64,000 nt of DNA from Chloroflexota bacterium (GTDB lineage: Bacteria; Chloroflexota; Dehalococcoidia; Lucifugimonadales; UBA3495). The notes under the pieces were generated by a model. That model was not told the DNA's origin, searched no databases, and saw only the letters and a list, made by a program, of their open reading frames with translations. The position numbers and the translations under genes were made by a program. Below are positions 25,029-32,804 of this stretch, one piece after another (position 1 is the first letter of the stretch; every line of letters begins with the position of its first letter). Location: contig JAQBVF010000009.1 of assembly GCA_027623675.1 (NCBI GenBank), positions 32,001-96,000 of the forward strand, given 5' to 3'.

Positions 25029-25364
25029 CTATAGAGGACTTTGTCCCAGCAATCCCGCGAACCGCAGGCCCCACAAGACTCCAGCCAGTCCCGTGGACAG
25101 TATCAACGTGACGGTCGCCCGGTTCTTCCACGCCGACCCCCACCAGCTGCCATGAGACTGCGCCAGCCACCAGCCCCGCGCCAACATGAGCACGGTTAAA
25201 GCCAAGAAAGGCCAGGTCATCACCCGCAACGCGGGCGCCAAGGCCAACCCGGCCGACGTTCCCCCCAGAACACCGAGCAGGCCCGGGACCACTCATCACC
25301 AAGGAAGCGGCAACAGTCCACTGAGCAGGCTTACGAACGGCTTTTCCAACGCAAATAGTTTCAT
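25029..25364 (-). CDS. MerT-like mercury transport membrane protein, putative selenoprotein with tandem UU
   Basis: ATG at 25364 with a purine-rich RBS reads MKLFALEKPFVSLLSGLLPLPW-TGA-TGA-VVPGLLGVLGG.. in frame with the track ORF; TGAs at 25293-25298 sit where MerT has CC (CCLGPLVL); hairpin at 25254-25275; downstream of merA. Confidence 0.7.
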
Positions 25365-25503
25365 TGTTTCCCCAACTCTCTCGTCAGATATCTGCCACGC
25401 ACTACGGCTGCTCCGGGTGAGTAAACTCAAGGGCAGCGGTGGAACGGCCAGTCAGATCAGATTTTCCCAAGGCCCGCTGTCTGAAACTCAAGCGCAGGGT
25501 CAC

Positions 25504-26940
25504 CTACTCGACGCAGCAACTCATCTGAGACACATCCCGCGTGAAGGCTTGCGCCGCTCGCTTTATACCCTCGCTCAGGGTCGGAAATACGTGGACGGTA
25601 TCGATTATGTCGTCGATGGTCAGGCTGAATTTCACCGCCATAGTGGCTTCGTGAATCAGGTCCGCGGCATGGGGCGCGACGATGTGAACGCCAAGCACCT
25701 TGGAGTTACTTGGATCGATGACCATCTTGAAAACGCCACGGTCATCCTTGGTGGCCTCTGCCTTTGGGACCGCGTCCATGTAGATGGTGCGGCAAGCGCA
25801 GGCTTTGGTCCTGCGCATCAGCTCCTCTTCAGTGATGCCAACCGACCCCACCTCAGGGTCCGTGAAAACGGCATGGGGCACTTCGTCATAGTTGATGCTC
25901 CTACGCGCGGAAGTCAGCGCATTGTCCGCGGCCAACGCCCCTTCTTTGGCCGCGACCGTCTCCAACGCCATCTTTCCGACACAGTCGCCGGCGGCGAAGA
26001 CGTCCGGGTTATCGGTCTGGTAATACTCGTCGACCTGGATGAAACCGTTTCCGTTGGCTTTCACACCGGCTTTCTCCAGCTGTAACGCGCCGGTATTGGC
26101 CTGGATGCCCGCGGCCAGCAGCAATTGGTCCGCCTCCAGGTCGGTTGCCGTTGTAACAAGACTTCGGTTCCGTTGGACCCCGCTGCCGCCCCGGACCGTG
26201 ACGATCTTCCTGCCGTTCCGTTCAGCCACCTTGTCCACCGTTACACCCACGTGAAACTCGATCCCCTCGTTCTCCAGGTTGCGTTGTAGTTCGGCGGCTA
26301 CCTCCGGCTCCTCACGGGGCAGAATTCGGTCCATGGCCTCCACCACGGTTACCTTCGTGCCAAAGCGAGCGAACATCTGGGCGAATTCCAATCCCAAGGG
26401 CCCGCCGCCAATAACGATCATTGATTCAGGCAGTTCTTGAAGCGCGAGCGCCGAGACGTTGTTCAGCCAGCGAACTTGGTCGATGCCGTCGATCGGCAGA
26501 ACCCTAGTGGAAGACCCGGTGGCGATGATTATCTTCTCCGCTTCGTAGGTCTGACCGCCGGCTTCCACGGCATTCGGCCCAACGAAACTGGCCACAGCCT
26601 CTAGCAGGGTAACCGTATCCAGGCCATCCAGAACGTTGCGGTAATTCCTCTGCCGCAAAGCGCCCACAAGCTCATCCTTTTCTTGGATGGCGGTCTTAAA
26701 ATCGAAATCGGGGCGGCGCCCATTGGAGATAGAGTTGAAATTTGAGTGGGAGCTGTAAAAAAGGTCATTGCCCACGCTGAGCAGGTGTTTACTGGGAACA
26801 CAGCCAACGTTGACGCAGGTGCCGCCCAGGGGCAGGCCGCTGTTGATCATGAGCGCGCTCTTGCCAAGATCCGCCGCTTTGGTCGCCGCTGCGAAGGCCG
26901 CCGCTCCGCCTCCGATGATTATCAGGTCAAGCTTATCCAT
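25504..26940 (-). CDS. merA: Mercury(II) reductase, core enzyme without NmerA domain
   Basis: [13 protein letters not shown] redox centre, HVFPTLSE and C-terminal MSCCVE Cys pair; in a MerR operon. Confidence 0.9.
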
Positions 26941-27147
26941 GGTCGCCTCTCAGTTATTGTTGTTTTAATCAGGTTAGTTTGGCTTTTGACGAGGGGACAT
27001 TTAGCTCAAGGATGAACACATCCTAAGTGCGCTATTGAAGACTCGAGGCATACCCTCTCTCCACGAGTTGCTTCAGCAATGTTTCGGCGTTACTGGACCG
27101 AAACTTTCCCCCACTGTCTGGATTCCGATAAACGATCGAGGCCTTGA

Positions 27148-27672
27148 TCACAGCGTCCGTTCAATCTCGGTCTTCAAAACGTCGTACGACGTAGCGCCGC
27201 CGTCACGGTAGGAGACGAGTCCATTTCGATCCAGGATTATGGTCGTGCCCAGGCTCGTCACTCCGAACTCCTTGACCAACCGGCCGCCGGTATCGTTTGC
27301 CCAGGTCACATCTTCAGCCCCCTTGCTATGCCAGTAATCGCGCCATTCCTCCACGGAGACCCAGGCGGCGGTATTGATGGCCAGAACCTGGACTCCCTGG
27401 GACTGAAATTCCCGTTGCGCCCGCCCTAAGGCTGGAGCCTCCAGCCCGCAGGTGGGTCAACCGGGAAACGAGAAGTAAAGGACCACGGTTTTACCCAGGT
27501 AGTCGTCCATCGCCAAGGAGACTGCTGGAACAGCTCCGCCGGGTCCGTCGGCGGCCGGAGGGCCGGAATCGTTCGCCCCTGAGACGGCCGTGTTGCCTCC
27601 GCAGCCGGCCAGCGCGGCGGTCAATGCCAACATGATCAGAAAAGCGAGCGCCCTGGGGTAGGTTGATCTCAA
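27148..27672 (-). CDS. TlpA/thioredoxin-fold lipoprotein, putative selenoprotein (UPTC)
   Basis: Two track ORFs join in frame through TGA at 27457-27459: LAGC lipobox..GKTVVLYFSFPG-U-PTCGLEAPAL..GVQVLAIN..FGVTSLGTTIILDRNG; hairpin at 27430-27446. Confidence 0.85.
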
Positions 27673-27687
27673 ATCAGCTCCGGAGGG

Positions 27688-27852
27688 TCAACTTGGAATA
27701 TGGTGGTCAAGCGAAGCGGTCGATCCTGGTACCGGGTCTGGTGTTTCGGGTGGCCCGCTTGGGGACCGGCGGAACACCATGGCGCCCAGCCCGATCATGG
27801 CCGGGATCAAGATACAGCAGATAACCGGAAATGCGGCCAGGAAAGCTCCCAC
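27688..27852 (-). CDS. Small membrane protein with CC motif (54 aa)
   Basis: GTG start after AGGT; MGAFLAAFPVICCILIPAMIGLGAMVFRR..; within the mer operon and below the ORF-track cutoff. Confidence 0.55.
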   Translation of the reverse strand: MGAFLAAFPVICCILIPAMIGLGAMVFRRSPSGPPETPDPVPGSTASLDHHIPS

Positions 27853-27940
27853 GATTACCTGCTTCGCCTTTCAGAAGTAGTCCATGAAACCGACCGCGGC
27901 TTTTGGCTCCGGTAGAACGCCAATTTCGGTGGTGCGGCCA

Positions 27941-28177
27941 CTATTCAGCCAGCAATTTTTCGAAGCGGGCGCGGTCAAATCCCACCACGACCTCGCCGTC
28001 GATCACGGTAACCGGGGTGGTCAACACACCCAGCTTCATCAACTCGTCCATTGCGGACTTGTCGTTCATGACATCCCGTTCCACAAAAGGAACATCCCGT
28101 TGCAAAAGATAATCTTTTGCCATCTCACAGAAGTGTCAACCGTCGGGTTGGGTGTAAACGAATATCTCGCGTGTCAT
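27941..28177 (-). CDS. Glutaredoxin/NrdH-like protein, putative selenoprotein (UHFC)
   Basis: AAGGAG RBS and ATG at 28177: MTREIFVYTQPDG-U-HFCEMAKDYL..TTPVTVIDGEVVVGFD; TGA at 28136-28138; hairpin at 28102-28120. Confidence 0.88.
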
Positions 28178-28227
28178 GAACTCTCCTTACTAAACTGATG
28201 GCTGGCTAAACACCTGAGCGTGGCGTA

Positions 28228-28671
28228 CTACCGAGGACGTTTGACGGCTGGGGCGGTCCGACGGTGTGCGACGTCGCTCTGTTCGATTATCGAGCAGATC
28301 TCCCCTCCCTCGGTCTTGCAGTCGACCAGGCCGATCGAGTGCTCTCTTAGCTCGACCAGGTCGCCTTTGAGGGCTTTCAGGTCTTCTATTGATGCCTCAA
28401 CATCCGATATCTTTTGGTCCAACAGGTCGCGGACGTGGATGCACGTCGCTTCTTTCGCGTCATGCAATCGAAAGATTCCCCGAATCTCATTCAAAGAGAA
28501 CCCCAATCGCTTCGCTTTAAGGATGAATTCCAGCCTACTCAACGACTCCCCATCGTACGAACGGTAGCCCCCAGTTGTCCTTGGGGGCTCCGGCATCAGG
28601 CCTTCGGCCTCATAGAACCTGATGGTCTTGGTGTTCGTGCCGGTGGCGCGGGCCAATTCGCCAATCTTCAC
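28228..28671 (-). CDS. merR: MerR family heavy-metal-responsive regulator
   Basis: IGELARATG..TIRFYE..GYRSY HTH; Cys in EATC plus C-X7-C (DCKTEGGEIC), the three-Cys arrangement of divalent-metal MerR sensors. Confidence 0.85.
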   Translation of the reverse strand: MKIGELARATGTNTKTIRFYEAEGLMPEPPRTTGGYRSYDGESLSRLEFILKAKRLGFSLNEIRGIFRLHDAKEATCIHVRDLLDQKISDVEASIEDLKALKGDLVELREHSIGLVDCKTEGGEICSIIEQSDVAHRRTAPAVKRPR

Positions 28672-28700
28672 TGATCGCTCCTGGATAGCTGCTGAATCCG

Positions 28701-28732
28701 ATTCTAAACCTTCCAGTATACTGGAATGTCAA
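28701..28732 (-). promoter_or_regulatory. MerR-type promoter/operator
   Basis: TTGACA-20 bp-TAGAAT; the spacer holds the perfect palindrome TTCCAGTATACTGGAA (28711-28726). Confidence 0.9.
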
Positions 28733-30474: not shown

Positions 30475-30547
30475 GGGCCGTTAGCTCAGTTGGCAGAGCA
30501 CCGGACTTTTAATCCGGGTGTCGTGGGTTCGACCCCCACACGGCCCA
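30475..30547 (+). tRNA. tRNA-Lys (TTT)
   Basis: GGGCCGT/ACGGCCC acceptor stem, D arm, CCGGA-CTTTTAA-TCCGG anticodon arm, GTTCGA T-loop; CCA not encoded. Confidence 0.97.
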
Positions 30548-30782
30548 CTTCTACTTCCTCGGTTTTGACAGACACCTAGCCACTGCTTGGTCTGGAGCAT
30601 CAGGCCATACGGCTCGGCGCCCATTGGCTCCCTCCTCGGTGTCGTCAACGGTTCTTTGATAAACGTTGGATCACCCGGTCGCCACGGCGACTCATCCATT
30701 GCAAAGACATCACGATAGGCAGTAGTCATCCGTCCGGGGAAAGACGGCGAGTCAATCTGGCCGGGTAGTATCATATCGAGAC

Positions 30783-31361: not shown

Positions 31362-32804
31362 CTACGACTCGGTGCCGGACAGCATGTACATCTTGCCTCC
31401 GGAGGCGACGGCGACCCTGCCGGTATTGGCGCCGACCGCCAGGCTGGTGATTGGACCGCCGAGATATACCTCCCACAGCTTCAGACCCTGGCTGTCGAAT
31501 AAGAACACCCTCCCATCGGAAGACCCGGCCGCCATGCGAGTGCCGGCGGGGTTAATAGCCACGGCCGTTATCGACGTACCCGCGACATCCACCTGGTTGA
31601 TCAGTAAGCCTTGATTGTTCAGCAGGTAGATCGTGCCGTTCGCCGTTCCAGCTGCCACTCTGGCCCCCGCGTCGGCGACCGCAACATCGTTGACCGGGCC
31701 GTTGACGGCGAGCGAGAAGATTGCGGCGCCGTCGTTGTTCAGCAAAAAAACCTGGCCCGCTTGGGAGCCGACCGCCGAGCGCGTGCCGTCGCCCGAAACA
31801 GCGGAGCCGTTAACCTGCCGGACTTCACCCGCCGGCGTCTCAAATATCCAGCGCTGCAGACCATCGGCGTTCAGAGAATGTGAATTCTGGTTCGCTGTCC
31901 CAACTGAAATCCGGCCCCCGTCGCCGGAGATGCCAACGTCGCTGACCGGGCCGCTCACCGCGACCGACCATAATTTGAACGGTCGTTCGTCCAGGAGATA
32001 CGCCGTGCCGGACGTGGTTGCCGTCCCTTGATCATCCGAGAATCCAGCCAAGATGCGGTTGCCGTCCAAGTCCATAGCCAGGCCAGTGACACTGCGCTTA
32101 ACAACCCCAGGCGAAGCGTCTGCCGCACCGTCGTAGGTCCAACTCAGGACCCCGTTCGCGTTCAGATAATAAACGGCGCCGGATGATGTCCCGGCCACCG
32201 AAGTCTGTCCGTCACCCCTCATGCCCACCTGTCCGATAGTTACCCCTGTGCCACTGGCCTGGAAGGTCCATAGCAGTTGGTTCGGCGTTGGGGTCGGTCC
32301 CGGCACAGGCGTTGGAGTAGGCGTGGGCGCAGGCGTTTTGGTCGGTTCGGGAGTACTGGTTGGCGAAGGCGTGGGTGTATTCACCGGAGTGGGCGCTGGA
32401 GTACTGGTCGGCAGCACGATGGTCGCCGTTGGCGTAGGAACCGGGGTGTTGGTGGCCAGCGGCGTGGGCACATCCGTGGGCTCGGGGGTGTCGGTTGGCG
32501 ATGGCCCGGTAGTTGGTTCGGCAGTCGGTTCGGCGGTTGGGCGAGGCGTTGGCTCCATCGTGGCAGGGGATGTCGGAACCGCCGTCGCCCCGCCGCCCGC
32601 TGTCGGCGCCGGGGTCGATGAGTCCACGGTTGGCGTCGGCGCCAGCGTTCGATCGGCAACGCCAGTCGACGGAGGGGGCGTCTGGGTGAACAAGGCGTTC
32701 GACCCACTGCCGCAGGCAGCGGTGAATAATGCCAGGAGAACGGCTGAGAGGCCGAGTCCCATGGACCGTCTAGACACCACTCTCAGAACAGGAATTCTCA
32801 ACAT
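31362..32804 (-). CDS. Lipoprotein with Pro/Thr-rich linker and WD40/PQQ-like beta-propeller
   Basis: TAAC lipobox, long PT repeats, repeated V..DG..AGS..G.V.L....G..LW blades; start uncertain. Confidence 0.75.
   Translation of the reverse strand: MLRIPVLRVVSRRSMGLGLSAVLLALFTAACGSGSNALFTQTPPPSTGVADRTLAPTPTVDSSTPAPTAGGGATAVPTSPATMEPTPRPTAEPTAEPTTGPSPTDTPEPTDVPTPLATNTPVPTPTATIVLPTSTPAPTPVNTPTPSPTSTPEPTKTPAPTPTPTPVPGPTPTPNQLLWTFQASGTGVTIGQVGMRGDGQTSVAGTSSGAVYYLNANGVLSWTYDGAADASPGVVKRSVTGLAMDLDGNRILAGFSDDQGTATTSGTAYLLDERPFKLWSVAVSGPVSDVGISGDGGRISVGTANQNSHSLNADGLQRWIFETPAGEVRQVNGSAVSGDGTRSAVGSQAGQVFLLNNDGAAIFSLAVNGPVNDVAVADAGARVAAGTANGTIYLLNNQGLLINQVDVAGTSITAVAINPAGTRMAAGSSDGRVFLFDSQGLKLWEVYLGGPITSLAVGANTGRVAVASGGKMYMLSGTES

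Follow-up and report, generated by a model that had tools for sequence, protein, structure and literature searches.

The stretch analysed here, a window of 64,000 nucleotides from the genome of a Chloroflexota bacterium (GTDB lineage Bacteria; Chloroflexota; Dehalococcoidia; Lucifugimonadales; UBA3495; GenBank assembly GCA_027623675.1, contig JAQBVF010000009.1, positions 32,001 to 96,000 of the forward strand), carries on its minus strand, from position 28732 to 25029, a promoter and six co-oriented open reading frames (ORFs) with intergenic gaps of 15-207 nucleotides. The genes encode, in this order, a merR-family regulator, a glutaredoxin (Grx)-like protein, a small membrane protein with a Cys-Cys motif, a TlpA-like lipoprotein, the mercuric reductase MerA and a MerT-like membrane protein. 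Four in-frame TGA codons fall into three of them, one each into the genes for Grx and the lipoprotein and two in direct succession (TGA TGA) into the MerT-like gene. A preliminary description, made from the sequence alone, had proposed that these codons specify selenocysteine (Sec, U), that they fall where the respective families carry cysteines, and that the operon lies behind an operator with a 20-bp spacer; all ORFs, the promoter and its dyad were recovered in our analysis, and the standard-code ORF list indeed breaks up all three TGA-containing genes. In the following, we describe this operon, which we lean towards interpreting as a mercury resistance system with selenium in its metal-handling sites, and weigh this interpretation against its alternatives.

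The promoter (28701..28732) combines a TTGACA and a TAGAAT element with a 20-bp spacer and a perfect 16-bp dyad at 28726-28711; a sigma-70 scan, which allowed only spacers of 16-18 nucleotides, missed it. The first gene (28228..28671) encodes a MerR-family metal sensor of 147 amino acids with Pfam MerR domains and the cysteines Cys77, Cys118 and Cys126, and the second (27941..28177) a Grx/NrdH-like candidate selenoprotein of 78 amino acids, whose TGA at 28138-28136 lies in a DGUHFC motif (U14-H-F-C17) and which retains a cis-proline, Pro55. They are followed by the gene for the small single-pass membrane protein (27688..27852; about 54 amino acids), which we refer to as the small CC protein for its Cys-Cys-x-x-I-P motif, and by that for a lipoprotein of the TlpA/ResA fold (27148..27672; 174 amino acids), a second candidate selenoprotein with a lipobox (LAGC24), a TGA at 27459-27457 within FPGUPTC (U72-P-T-C75) and a glycine at position 142. 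The fifth gene, merA (25504..26940), encodes 478 amino acids without an NmerA domain. The last (25029..25364) encodes the MerT-like protein of 111 amino acids, in which the codons at 25298-25293 yield the motif LPWUUVVP (Sec23-Sec24, or UU). None of the six proteins contains an HMA domain according to Pfam, so merP and the NmerA domain of the canonical Tn21/Tn501 mer operon are missing here, as had been noted before. The GC content of the region is 57.7%, compared with 62-63% in its flanks.

The contigs of two public sequencing runs show 0 differences from the stretch, the first run (X1) covering it in one piece at a depth of 52 and the second (X2) in two pieces at a depth of 9-11; a third run (X3), made up of short pieces only, was left aside. 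This confirms the TGAs at the level of assembled contigs, but not of raw reads, and both runs are possibly the source of this DNA. Tryptophan does not come into question for these codons, because this genome uses TGA as an ordinary stop, at the end of 322 of 1380 long ORFs, and the tRNA-Trp carries the anticodon CCA. The machinery for selenocysteine is present: selA (555 bits), selB (348 bits) and selD (380 bits) all exceed their cut-offs, selD with a TGA of its own, and are accompanied by a tRNA-Sec (TCA). Among the 61 genomes that we searched, selA is above its cut-off in 56.

Alignments of homologs provide Sec/Cys pairs for all three genes. The lipoprotein TGA is kept in all seven close matches among the 61 genomes and in seven further genomes of the order, and four database proteins (P0167-P0170) have the cysteine forms FPGCPTC or FPDCPTC. 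Likewise, DGUHFC is found in six of six close Grx orthologues (56-85% identity), each encoded directly after merR, and Grx paralogues include cysteine forms such as CVPC and CGPC. For the MerT-like gene, TGATGA occurs at 20 sites of the scanned neighbourhoods and at two more, making 22, and a profile search for distant homologs gave 41 matches, of which 23 were fetched and 15 are full-length with a PWCC motif; in one genome (G007), TGATGA is mutated together with a new stop. Five public entries (P0001, P0002, P0133, P0137 and P0150) show tryptophan at the UU position, which we ascribe to gene calling with TGA as Trp. This was shown for P0002, whose W is an artefact, since in this entry even the TGA that terminates the near-identical copy in genome G028 is translated as W; it is probable for the other four. 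Such entries can mislead searches for Cys/Sec pairs, and P0133 (PWCW) may represent a Cys-Sec intermediate.

Taken together, the four TGAs are very probably decoded as selenocysteine. The preliminary description had named three findings that would speak to the contrary, namely a genome devoid of the Sec machinery, homologs with residues other than cysteine and TGAs arising from read errors, and none of them occurred. The competing explanation, that the TGAs are true stops and the three genes either pseudogenes or separately translated short pieces, is very improbable. It could draw on the database gene calls, which begin after UU and are 70-92 amino acids long in 118 of the 120 best matches, on the GTG that follows TGATGA in this genome, and on the Grx hairpin described below, which fails the rule for bacterial Sec insertion sequences (bSECIS). 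However, TGA is found invariably, at Cys-equivalent positions and in several families, with selA widespread in the same genomes; the ten codons before UU differ from those of the window by 92 synonymous and 19 non-synonymous changes, indicating purifying selection; and the start codon after UU is not conserved, three copies reading ATC GTC, GTC GTT and GTT GTT at this place.

A stem-loop had been proposed to follow each TGA, and a hairpin is indeed present after every one of them, its stem beginning about 10-16 nucleotides downstream. In the lipoprotein gene, the candidate SECIS (27429..27447) has an 8-bp stem and a GGC loop 17 nucleotides after the UGA; in the MerT-like gene (25242..25283), it is formed by the arms 25283-25273 and 25252-25242, with a variable, G-containing apex 26-34 nucleotides downstream and an 11-pair consensus stem in which double-sided changes are mostly lacking. 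In Grx, the hairpin keeps its place, one A-U pair being exchanged for G-C, and its loop reads UUA in this genome, without an apical G. In our own implementation of the bSECIS rule from PMC13188914, with 60 random positions in merA as a control, the lipoprotein gene passed in eight of eight loci, the true UU sites in 18 of 20 (one extra TGATGA match outside a gene was left out) and Grx in three of six, compared with 10 of the 60 controls, and among the Grx hairpins that fail is the one described here. The median z-scores of hairpin stability against synonymous recoding were -2.0, -1.1 and -0.6 for the lipoprotein, MerT-like and Grx genes, respectively. Since only the lipoprotein hairpin stands out in this comparison, the sequence-based SECIS evidence is strong for the lipoprotein gene and suggestive for the other two.

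The assignment of merA held up on closer inspection. The protein scores 537.5 bits with TIGR02053 (cut-off 454.45), its closest sequence match in the PDB is the mercuric reductase 4YWO (E 7.8e-98), and alignment to 4YWO and 5X1Y identifies the redox pair Cys42/Cys47, Tyr100, the archaeal-type Phe452 and Cys475-Cys476. These correspond to all MerA signatures given in PMC8261052, i.e. the redox Cys pair, the equivalents of Tyr264 and Tyr/Phe605, and the vicinal C-terminal Cys pair. The gene at 25504..26940 is thus merA, and its product a predicted mercuric reductase. MerA exceeds the cut-off in four of the 61 genomes, each time with a UPTC lipoprotein within about 3 kb, and conversely merA lies near the Sec-lipoprotein in eight of 15 loci (G000, which denotes this genome, 91% complete, and G003, G026, G046, L027, G724, G738 and G744; G and L codes stand for genomes and loci). 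A merA-like match in G960, where tlpA is broken, was excluded from this count as being of the dihydrolipoamide dehydrogenase type (HPTLSE, no CC), and a genome scan with merA alone yielded one useful locus. In G000, G003, G046 and G054, the MerT-like gene directly follows merA. A remnant resembling the MerA C-terminus (ending CCVE) is repeated right after this gene in G046 (L045:4378-4500), as if the end of merA had been duplicated when the gene was inserted. Between an ArsR gene and merA at L027:5340-5885 lies an ORF of the thioredoxin fold with SPTUGYC, which is another candidate selenoprotein.

Which metal the operon responds to had been left open between Hg and other soft metals. The regulator stays below the cut-off of every NCBIfam equivalog, its best match being CadR/PbrR (118 of 151 bits), and its Cys77, Cys118 and Cys126 align with the metal-binding cysteines of annotated MerR proteins. 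The operator lies within a 20-bp spacer, as is expected of Hg(II)-responsive MerR (19-20 bp). It is unique in this genome at up to three mismatches, and the same motif precedes the merR orthologue in seven genomes, this one included, and in G960. Outside the phylum, 16 of 18 dyad bases are shared with the operator that precedes merB in Streptomyces anulatus, again with a 20-bp spacer, and four of four opened actinobacterial plasmid relatives of the regulator adjoin merA or merB. These actinobacterial mer loci (Nocardioides, Rhodococcus, Streptomyces and Dietzia plasmids) encode a 'heavy metal-responsive transcriptional regulator' 41-47% identical to the one described here, behind a near-identical operator; unlike in our operon, where the regulator is the first gene, it is divergent from merA/merB, and the loci contain no Sec. 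From the operator and the likeness of the regulator to these loci, mercury emerges as the likely main target of the operon. In genome G044 (L046:7877-7908), a second copy of the operator-promoter precedes the MerT-like gene itself, downstream of a merR with a premature TAG.

The lipoprotein has Redoxin and AhpC-TSA domains above their cut-offs, and its structural model superimposes on ResA with a root-mean-square deviation of 1.4 Å over 119 columns. It departs from its relatives at the cis-proline position, which is occupied by glycine in all 13 clade members (Gly142 here) and by proline in 71 of 72 generic TlpAs. In the cysteine forms, this residue is Glu, Asp or Gly in eight of eight Chloroflexota proteins and Glu in Staphylococcus aureus. 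According to PMC2757866, which cites Su et al. (2007), the cis-proline may keep metals from binding to CxxC motifs. As it is lost here, as in the mer-linked cysteine forms, the sequence suggests that the lipoprotein is a metal-binding stand-in for MerP.

It is nevertheless conceivable, though fairly unlikely, that MerA handles mercury alone and that the selenoproteins form a redox-maintenance chain, in which electrons would pass from Grx via the Sec-Sec protein or the small CC protein, as a substitute for CcdA, to the surface lipoprotein and keep both it and envelope thiols reduced under metal stress. The ResA-like fold of the lipoprotein and the cis-proline retained in Grx accord with such a chain, as does the company of CcdA, which is found beside the lipoprotein in the cysteine-type loci and in some of the Sec type (G026, G738 and G767). 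No CcdA or DsbD that could feed a disulfide reductase was found in this genome (91% complete); this favours a metal-binding role of the lipoprotein, but it also leaves room for something that replaces CcdA here. In G026, the operon holds CcdA, a thioredoxin and an HMA protein, while the Sec-Sec gene lies on another contig. The module also survives without merA. Yet the lipoprotein clade has, throughout, given up the cis-proline that characterises thiol oxidoreductases, and the Sec-Sec protein resembles MerT rather than CcdA, its profile retrieving canonical-looking merT genes. Furthermore, CcdA and MerT are not simple alternatives, since the S. aureus operon has both.

The preliminary description had counted Grx among the proteins that deliver mercury. 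This role has become less plausible: with PF00462 above its cut-off and the cis-proline kept, Grx has the marks of a redox enzyme and probably serves as a helper of this kind rather than as a carrier. A MerA-like enzyme of Synechocystis depends on a glutaredoxin (PMC8261052). Many related genomes carry other UxxC Grx paralogues (L136-L158; GUGPC, GUFSC, GUFTC and GUATC), some at the C-terminus of longer ORFs. The small CC protein matches no Pfam or NCBIfam family, and a similar small ORF directly precedes the TlpA gene in G003, G004, G005, G011 and G026. A possible fifth Sec near its start (ATG GAC TAC TTC TGA) was dismissed, as this start is not conserved in relatives.

The Sec-Sec protein belongs to a distinct subfamily with the motif PW[UC][UC]xxP, which falls below the cut-off of PF02411. 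HHalign relates its profile to an annotated Bacillus-type MerT from Listeria at 92.9%. Its model, of modest quality (predicted local distance difference test score of 68), shows three long helices, and the protein contains the motif UUxxP; fold searches with this model returned generic helix bundles only and no specific match. There is no cysteine outside the UU pair, and the aligned part of the Listeria MerT likewise has no second pair. The MerT of Tn501 carries a second, cytoplasmic Cys pair. Overall, we regard it as probable that this protein is a bacterial transporter with a Sec-Sec pair. In genome G066 (L063:1440-1790), an NmerA-type mer operon is followed some 2 kb further on by a canonical-looking MerT whose CU motif identifies it as the CU form that has already been described.

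The MerT-like gene is present in 20 of the 61 genomes and intact in 14 of these. Several genomes of the genus keep it alone, at the same chromosomal site; the ratios of non-synonymous to synonymous polymorphism (pN/pS) of such solo genes, 0.15-0.34, reflect a long shared history and are no proof of present selection. The remaining six genomes, all of this genus and all without MerA above the cut-off, have only broken copies, which fits decay after the loss of merA, and the drafts (62-95% complete) may hide merA or create breaks.

Given these observations, we consider it rather probable that this is a chromosomal, monoderm-type mercury resistance operon in which Sec replaces the metal-handling cysteines of three helper proteins. 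This reading draws on the operon anatomy, the identity of MerA, the Sec machinery, the conservation of the TGAs and their cysteine counterparts, and the loss of the cis-proline in the lipoprotein, all obtained by sequence comparison, and the mechanism that we infer would run as follows. The regulator would occupy the dyad within the 20-bp spacer, switching the operon on when Hg(II) binds to Cys77, Cys118 and Cys126, and SelB-dependent read-through would yield the full-length proteins, with a single hairpin for the two adjacent UGAs of the MerT-like gene. At the surface, the lipoprotein would bind Hg(II) at U72/C75 in place of MerP, and the three-helix membrane protein, perhaps together with the small CC protein, would use its Sec-Sec pair to carry it across the membrane. 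MerA would take the ion at Cys475-Cys476 and reduce it to volatile Hg(0), and the UxxC glutaredoxin would keep thiols and selenols reduced or strip mercury from cellular thiols, substituting for NmerA. That the lipoprotein and the Sec-Sec protein act in the capture and import of mercury appears reasonably probable to us. The most specific form of the proposal is more tentative: a mercury-selenium relay of the Dehalococcoidia, in which a surface UxxC lipoprotein would have exchanged redox catalysis for metal binding and would capture Hg(II). Its import or trapping would fall to a membrane protein with a near-obligate Sec-Sec pair, whose adjacent UGAs would be decoded by SelB by means of a single in-frame hairpin.

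A number of observations weigh against a mercury resistance system of this kind. The regulator misses the cut-off of TIGR02051, the Hg(II)-responsive MerR (104 bits, cut-off 150.85), and fails all other MerR cut-offs. The Sec-Sec protein matches no MerT model in Pfam or NCBIfam and can therefore be said to work like MerT at best; among its 15 cysteine homologs, four match MerT or MerC, only at E 0.01-0.03, and HHalign to the S. aureus MerT gives 4.4%. For the lipoprotein, a quick tree with long branches did not recover orthology with the S. aureus protein, which a generic TlpA outscores in HHalign, and the redoxin of the Nocardioides mer region retains the proline. The Grx hairpin lacks its apical G and, together with that of the Sec-Sec gene, is not clearly more stable than synonymous recodings. 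Haft and Gwadz argue that Sec-dependent mercury resistance would fail when selenium is short (bioRxiv 10.1101/2022.07.06.499078). Finally, nine genomes with an intact Sec-Sec gene (G001, G002, G004, G011, G012, G025, G028, G037 and G044; 62-95% complete) have no MerA at the cut-off, and G004, G005 and G011 keep the series merR-grx-small-tlpA-merT without merA in between, which matters because an importer lacking its reductase would be harmful.

This last point also speaks for regarding the Sec-Sec protein and the lipoprotein as general soft-metal sinks or transporters (for Cu, Ag, Cd, Au or membrane-trapped Hg-Se), with merA as an optional passenger, which we judge quite unlikely. Next to the Sec-Sec gene lie, among others, a P1B ATPase with two HMA domains in G025 and a CDF exporter in G208, its Cys-Cys homologs lie near CsoR, P1B ATPases, HMA proteins and RND parts, and the best model of the regulator is CadR/PbrR. 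In 41 metagenome loci of the Cys-Cys homolog, we found a MerR-like gene in 18, a P-type ATPase or HMA match in 13, and a merA-like match and merB in only one each, on short contigs; Pfam was run on 90 ORFs from 22 of these loci. On the other hand, the operator matches those before merA and merB, the Sec-Sec gene directly follows merA in the four genomes given above, and the genomes with nothing but broken copies are all without a MerA above the cut-off, as would be expected after merA loss, although some breaks may be assembly errors. Because the Sec-Sec gene or the cassette occurs without merA and the Cys-Cys loci rarely have it, both the soft-metal explanation and the redox chain retain some probability. 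Separately, the Cys-Cys homologs are often part of a recurring gene neighbourhood (L078, L079, L083, L097, L100, L101 and L107), in which HMA proteins are joined by an NHL-repeat protein and a MetA-pathway-like beta-barrel protein; this is apparently an undescribed metal module.

If the relay in its most specific form is correct, no mercury resistance system before it would have depended on selenoproteins, its Sec-Sec protein would be the first natural one in bacteria, and Sec-Sec genes kept without merA would encode stand-alone Hg-Se sinks. The operon would tie the mercury and selenium cycles together in a widespread aquatic lineage, as yet uncultured, in which these proteins are concealed because gene calling breaks them into fragments. 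Moreover, it offers a natural test of whether bacterial SelB decodes adjacent UGAs from one hairpin, which is relevant to selenoprotein engineering, and assigns a testable function, MerP-like metal binding after loss of the cis-proline, to the TlpA-family gene of staphylococcal-type mer operons. Elsewhere in the window, we noticed a predicted lipoprotein (31362-32804), whose long linker is rich in Pro/Thr and whose C-terminal part is propeller-like and full of repeats, and a tRNA-Lys near 30475-30548.

The arrangement itself, of which the preliminary description knew no earlier account, turned out to have cysteine-based precedents in S. aureus and in other Chloroflexota, so that the novelty lies in the selenium substitution and the UU pair. 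The S. aureus plasmid NZ_CP127020.1 carries merR, TlpA, CcdA, merT, merA and merB in this order and no merP. It shares with our operon a co-oriented regulator in first position, the 20-bp spacer, a cis-proline-less thioredoxin-fold lipoprotein in the place of MerP, MerT and MerA. By contrast, the operon described here has Sec for Cys in the lipoprotein and the transporter, a UxxC glutaredoxin and the small CC protein in addition, no CcdA, merB or NmerA, and a different operator, besides the unrecovered orthology of the lipoproteins. Plasmid searches returned only generic TlpAs for the lipoprotein and nothing for the CcdA-like protein of G026. In Chloroflexota, a lipoprotein profile run over 401 genomes of the phylum matched 13 besides this one, of which seven were opened. 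In these cysteine-type loci, CcdA stands beside the lipoprotein in seven of seven and a MerA with a C-terminal CC within about 3 kb in six of seven. The related cis-proline-less lipoprotein near MerA (G519, G601, G606, G624, G659 and G686) is as in our operon, but these unannotated genomes have Cys instead of Sec, CcdA and mostly ArsR-type regulators, and the opened stretches contain no UU gene. A longer Sec operon in G026 (L058:8428-12941) comprises merR, Grx(U), merA, an HMA protein, a CcdA-like protein, a thioredoxin, the small CC protein and the lipoprotein(U). By its sequence, the operon is thus a predicted selenium version of a cysteine-based, staphylococcal-type mer operon.

Among selenoproteins, MerT forms with a single Sec have been reported, namely the CU-type WP_250634603.1 (bioRxiv 10.1101/2022.07.06.499078) and ABB16073.1 (PMC13188914; PMC9312934); they carry Sec in the metal site of the first helix, as here, but one residue rather than two adjacent ones, and the present gene belongs to an operon that combines three selenoproteins with merA. 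PMC13188914, whose 2026 table covers 119 families of prokaryotic selenoproteins, lists one-Sec MerT, UxxC Grx and redoxins there and no UU motif. The SAO and Tso operons (PMC13188914; bioRxiv 10.1101/2022.07.06.499078) resemble ours in combining several selenoprotein genes with a proposed role in heavy-metal ligation; they consist of different genes, and SAO is argued to be metabolic and not a resistance system, unlike the present operon with its MerA and metal-sensing regulator. The first Sec-Sec motif was described in PMC7539508 for the algal PDI_e (GUGUU), with consecutive Sec residues as here, but in a eukaryote with a SECIS in the 3' UTR (untranslated region), whereas here SelB decoding depends on position and an in-frame hairpin must serve two codons. 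In our literature search, which did not extend to most subscription papers or to review supplements and BSepDB, the last two of which could hold UU entries, we came across neither this operon nor any Sec-Sec protein from bacteria. Haft and Gwadz regard mercury resistance that relies on selenoproteins as a strange design of which they had met no example (bioRxiv 10.1101/2022.07.06.499078); the operon described here looks like such a case.

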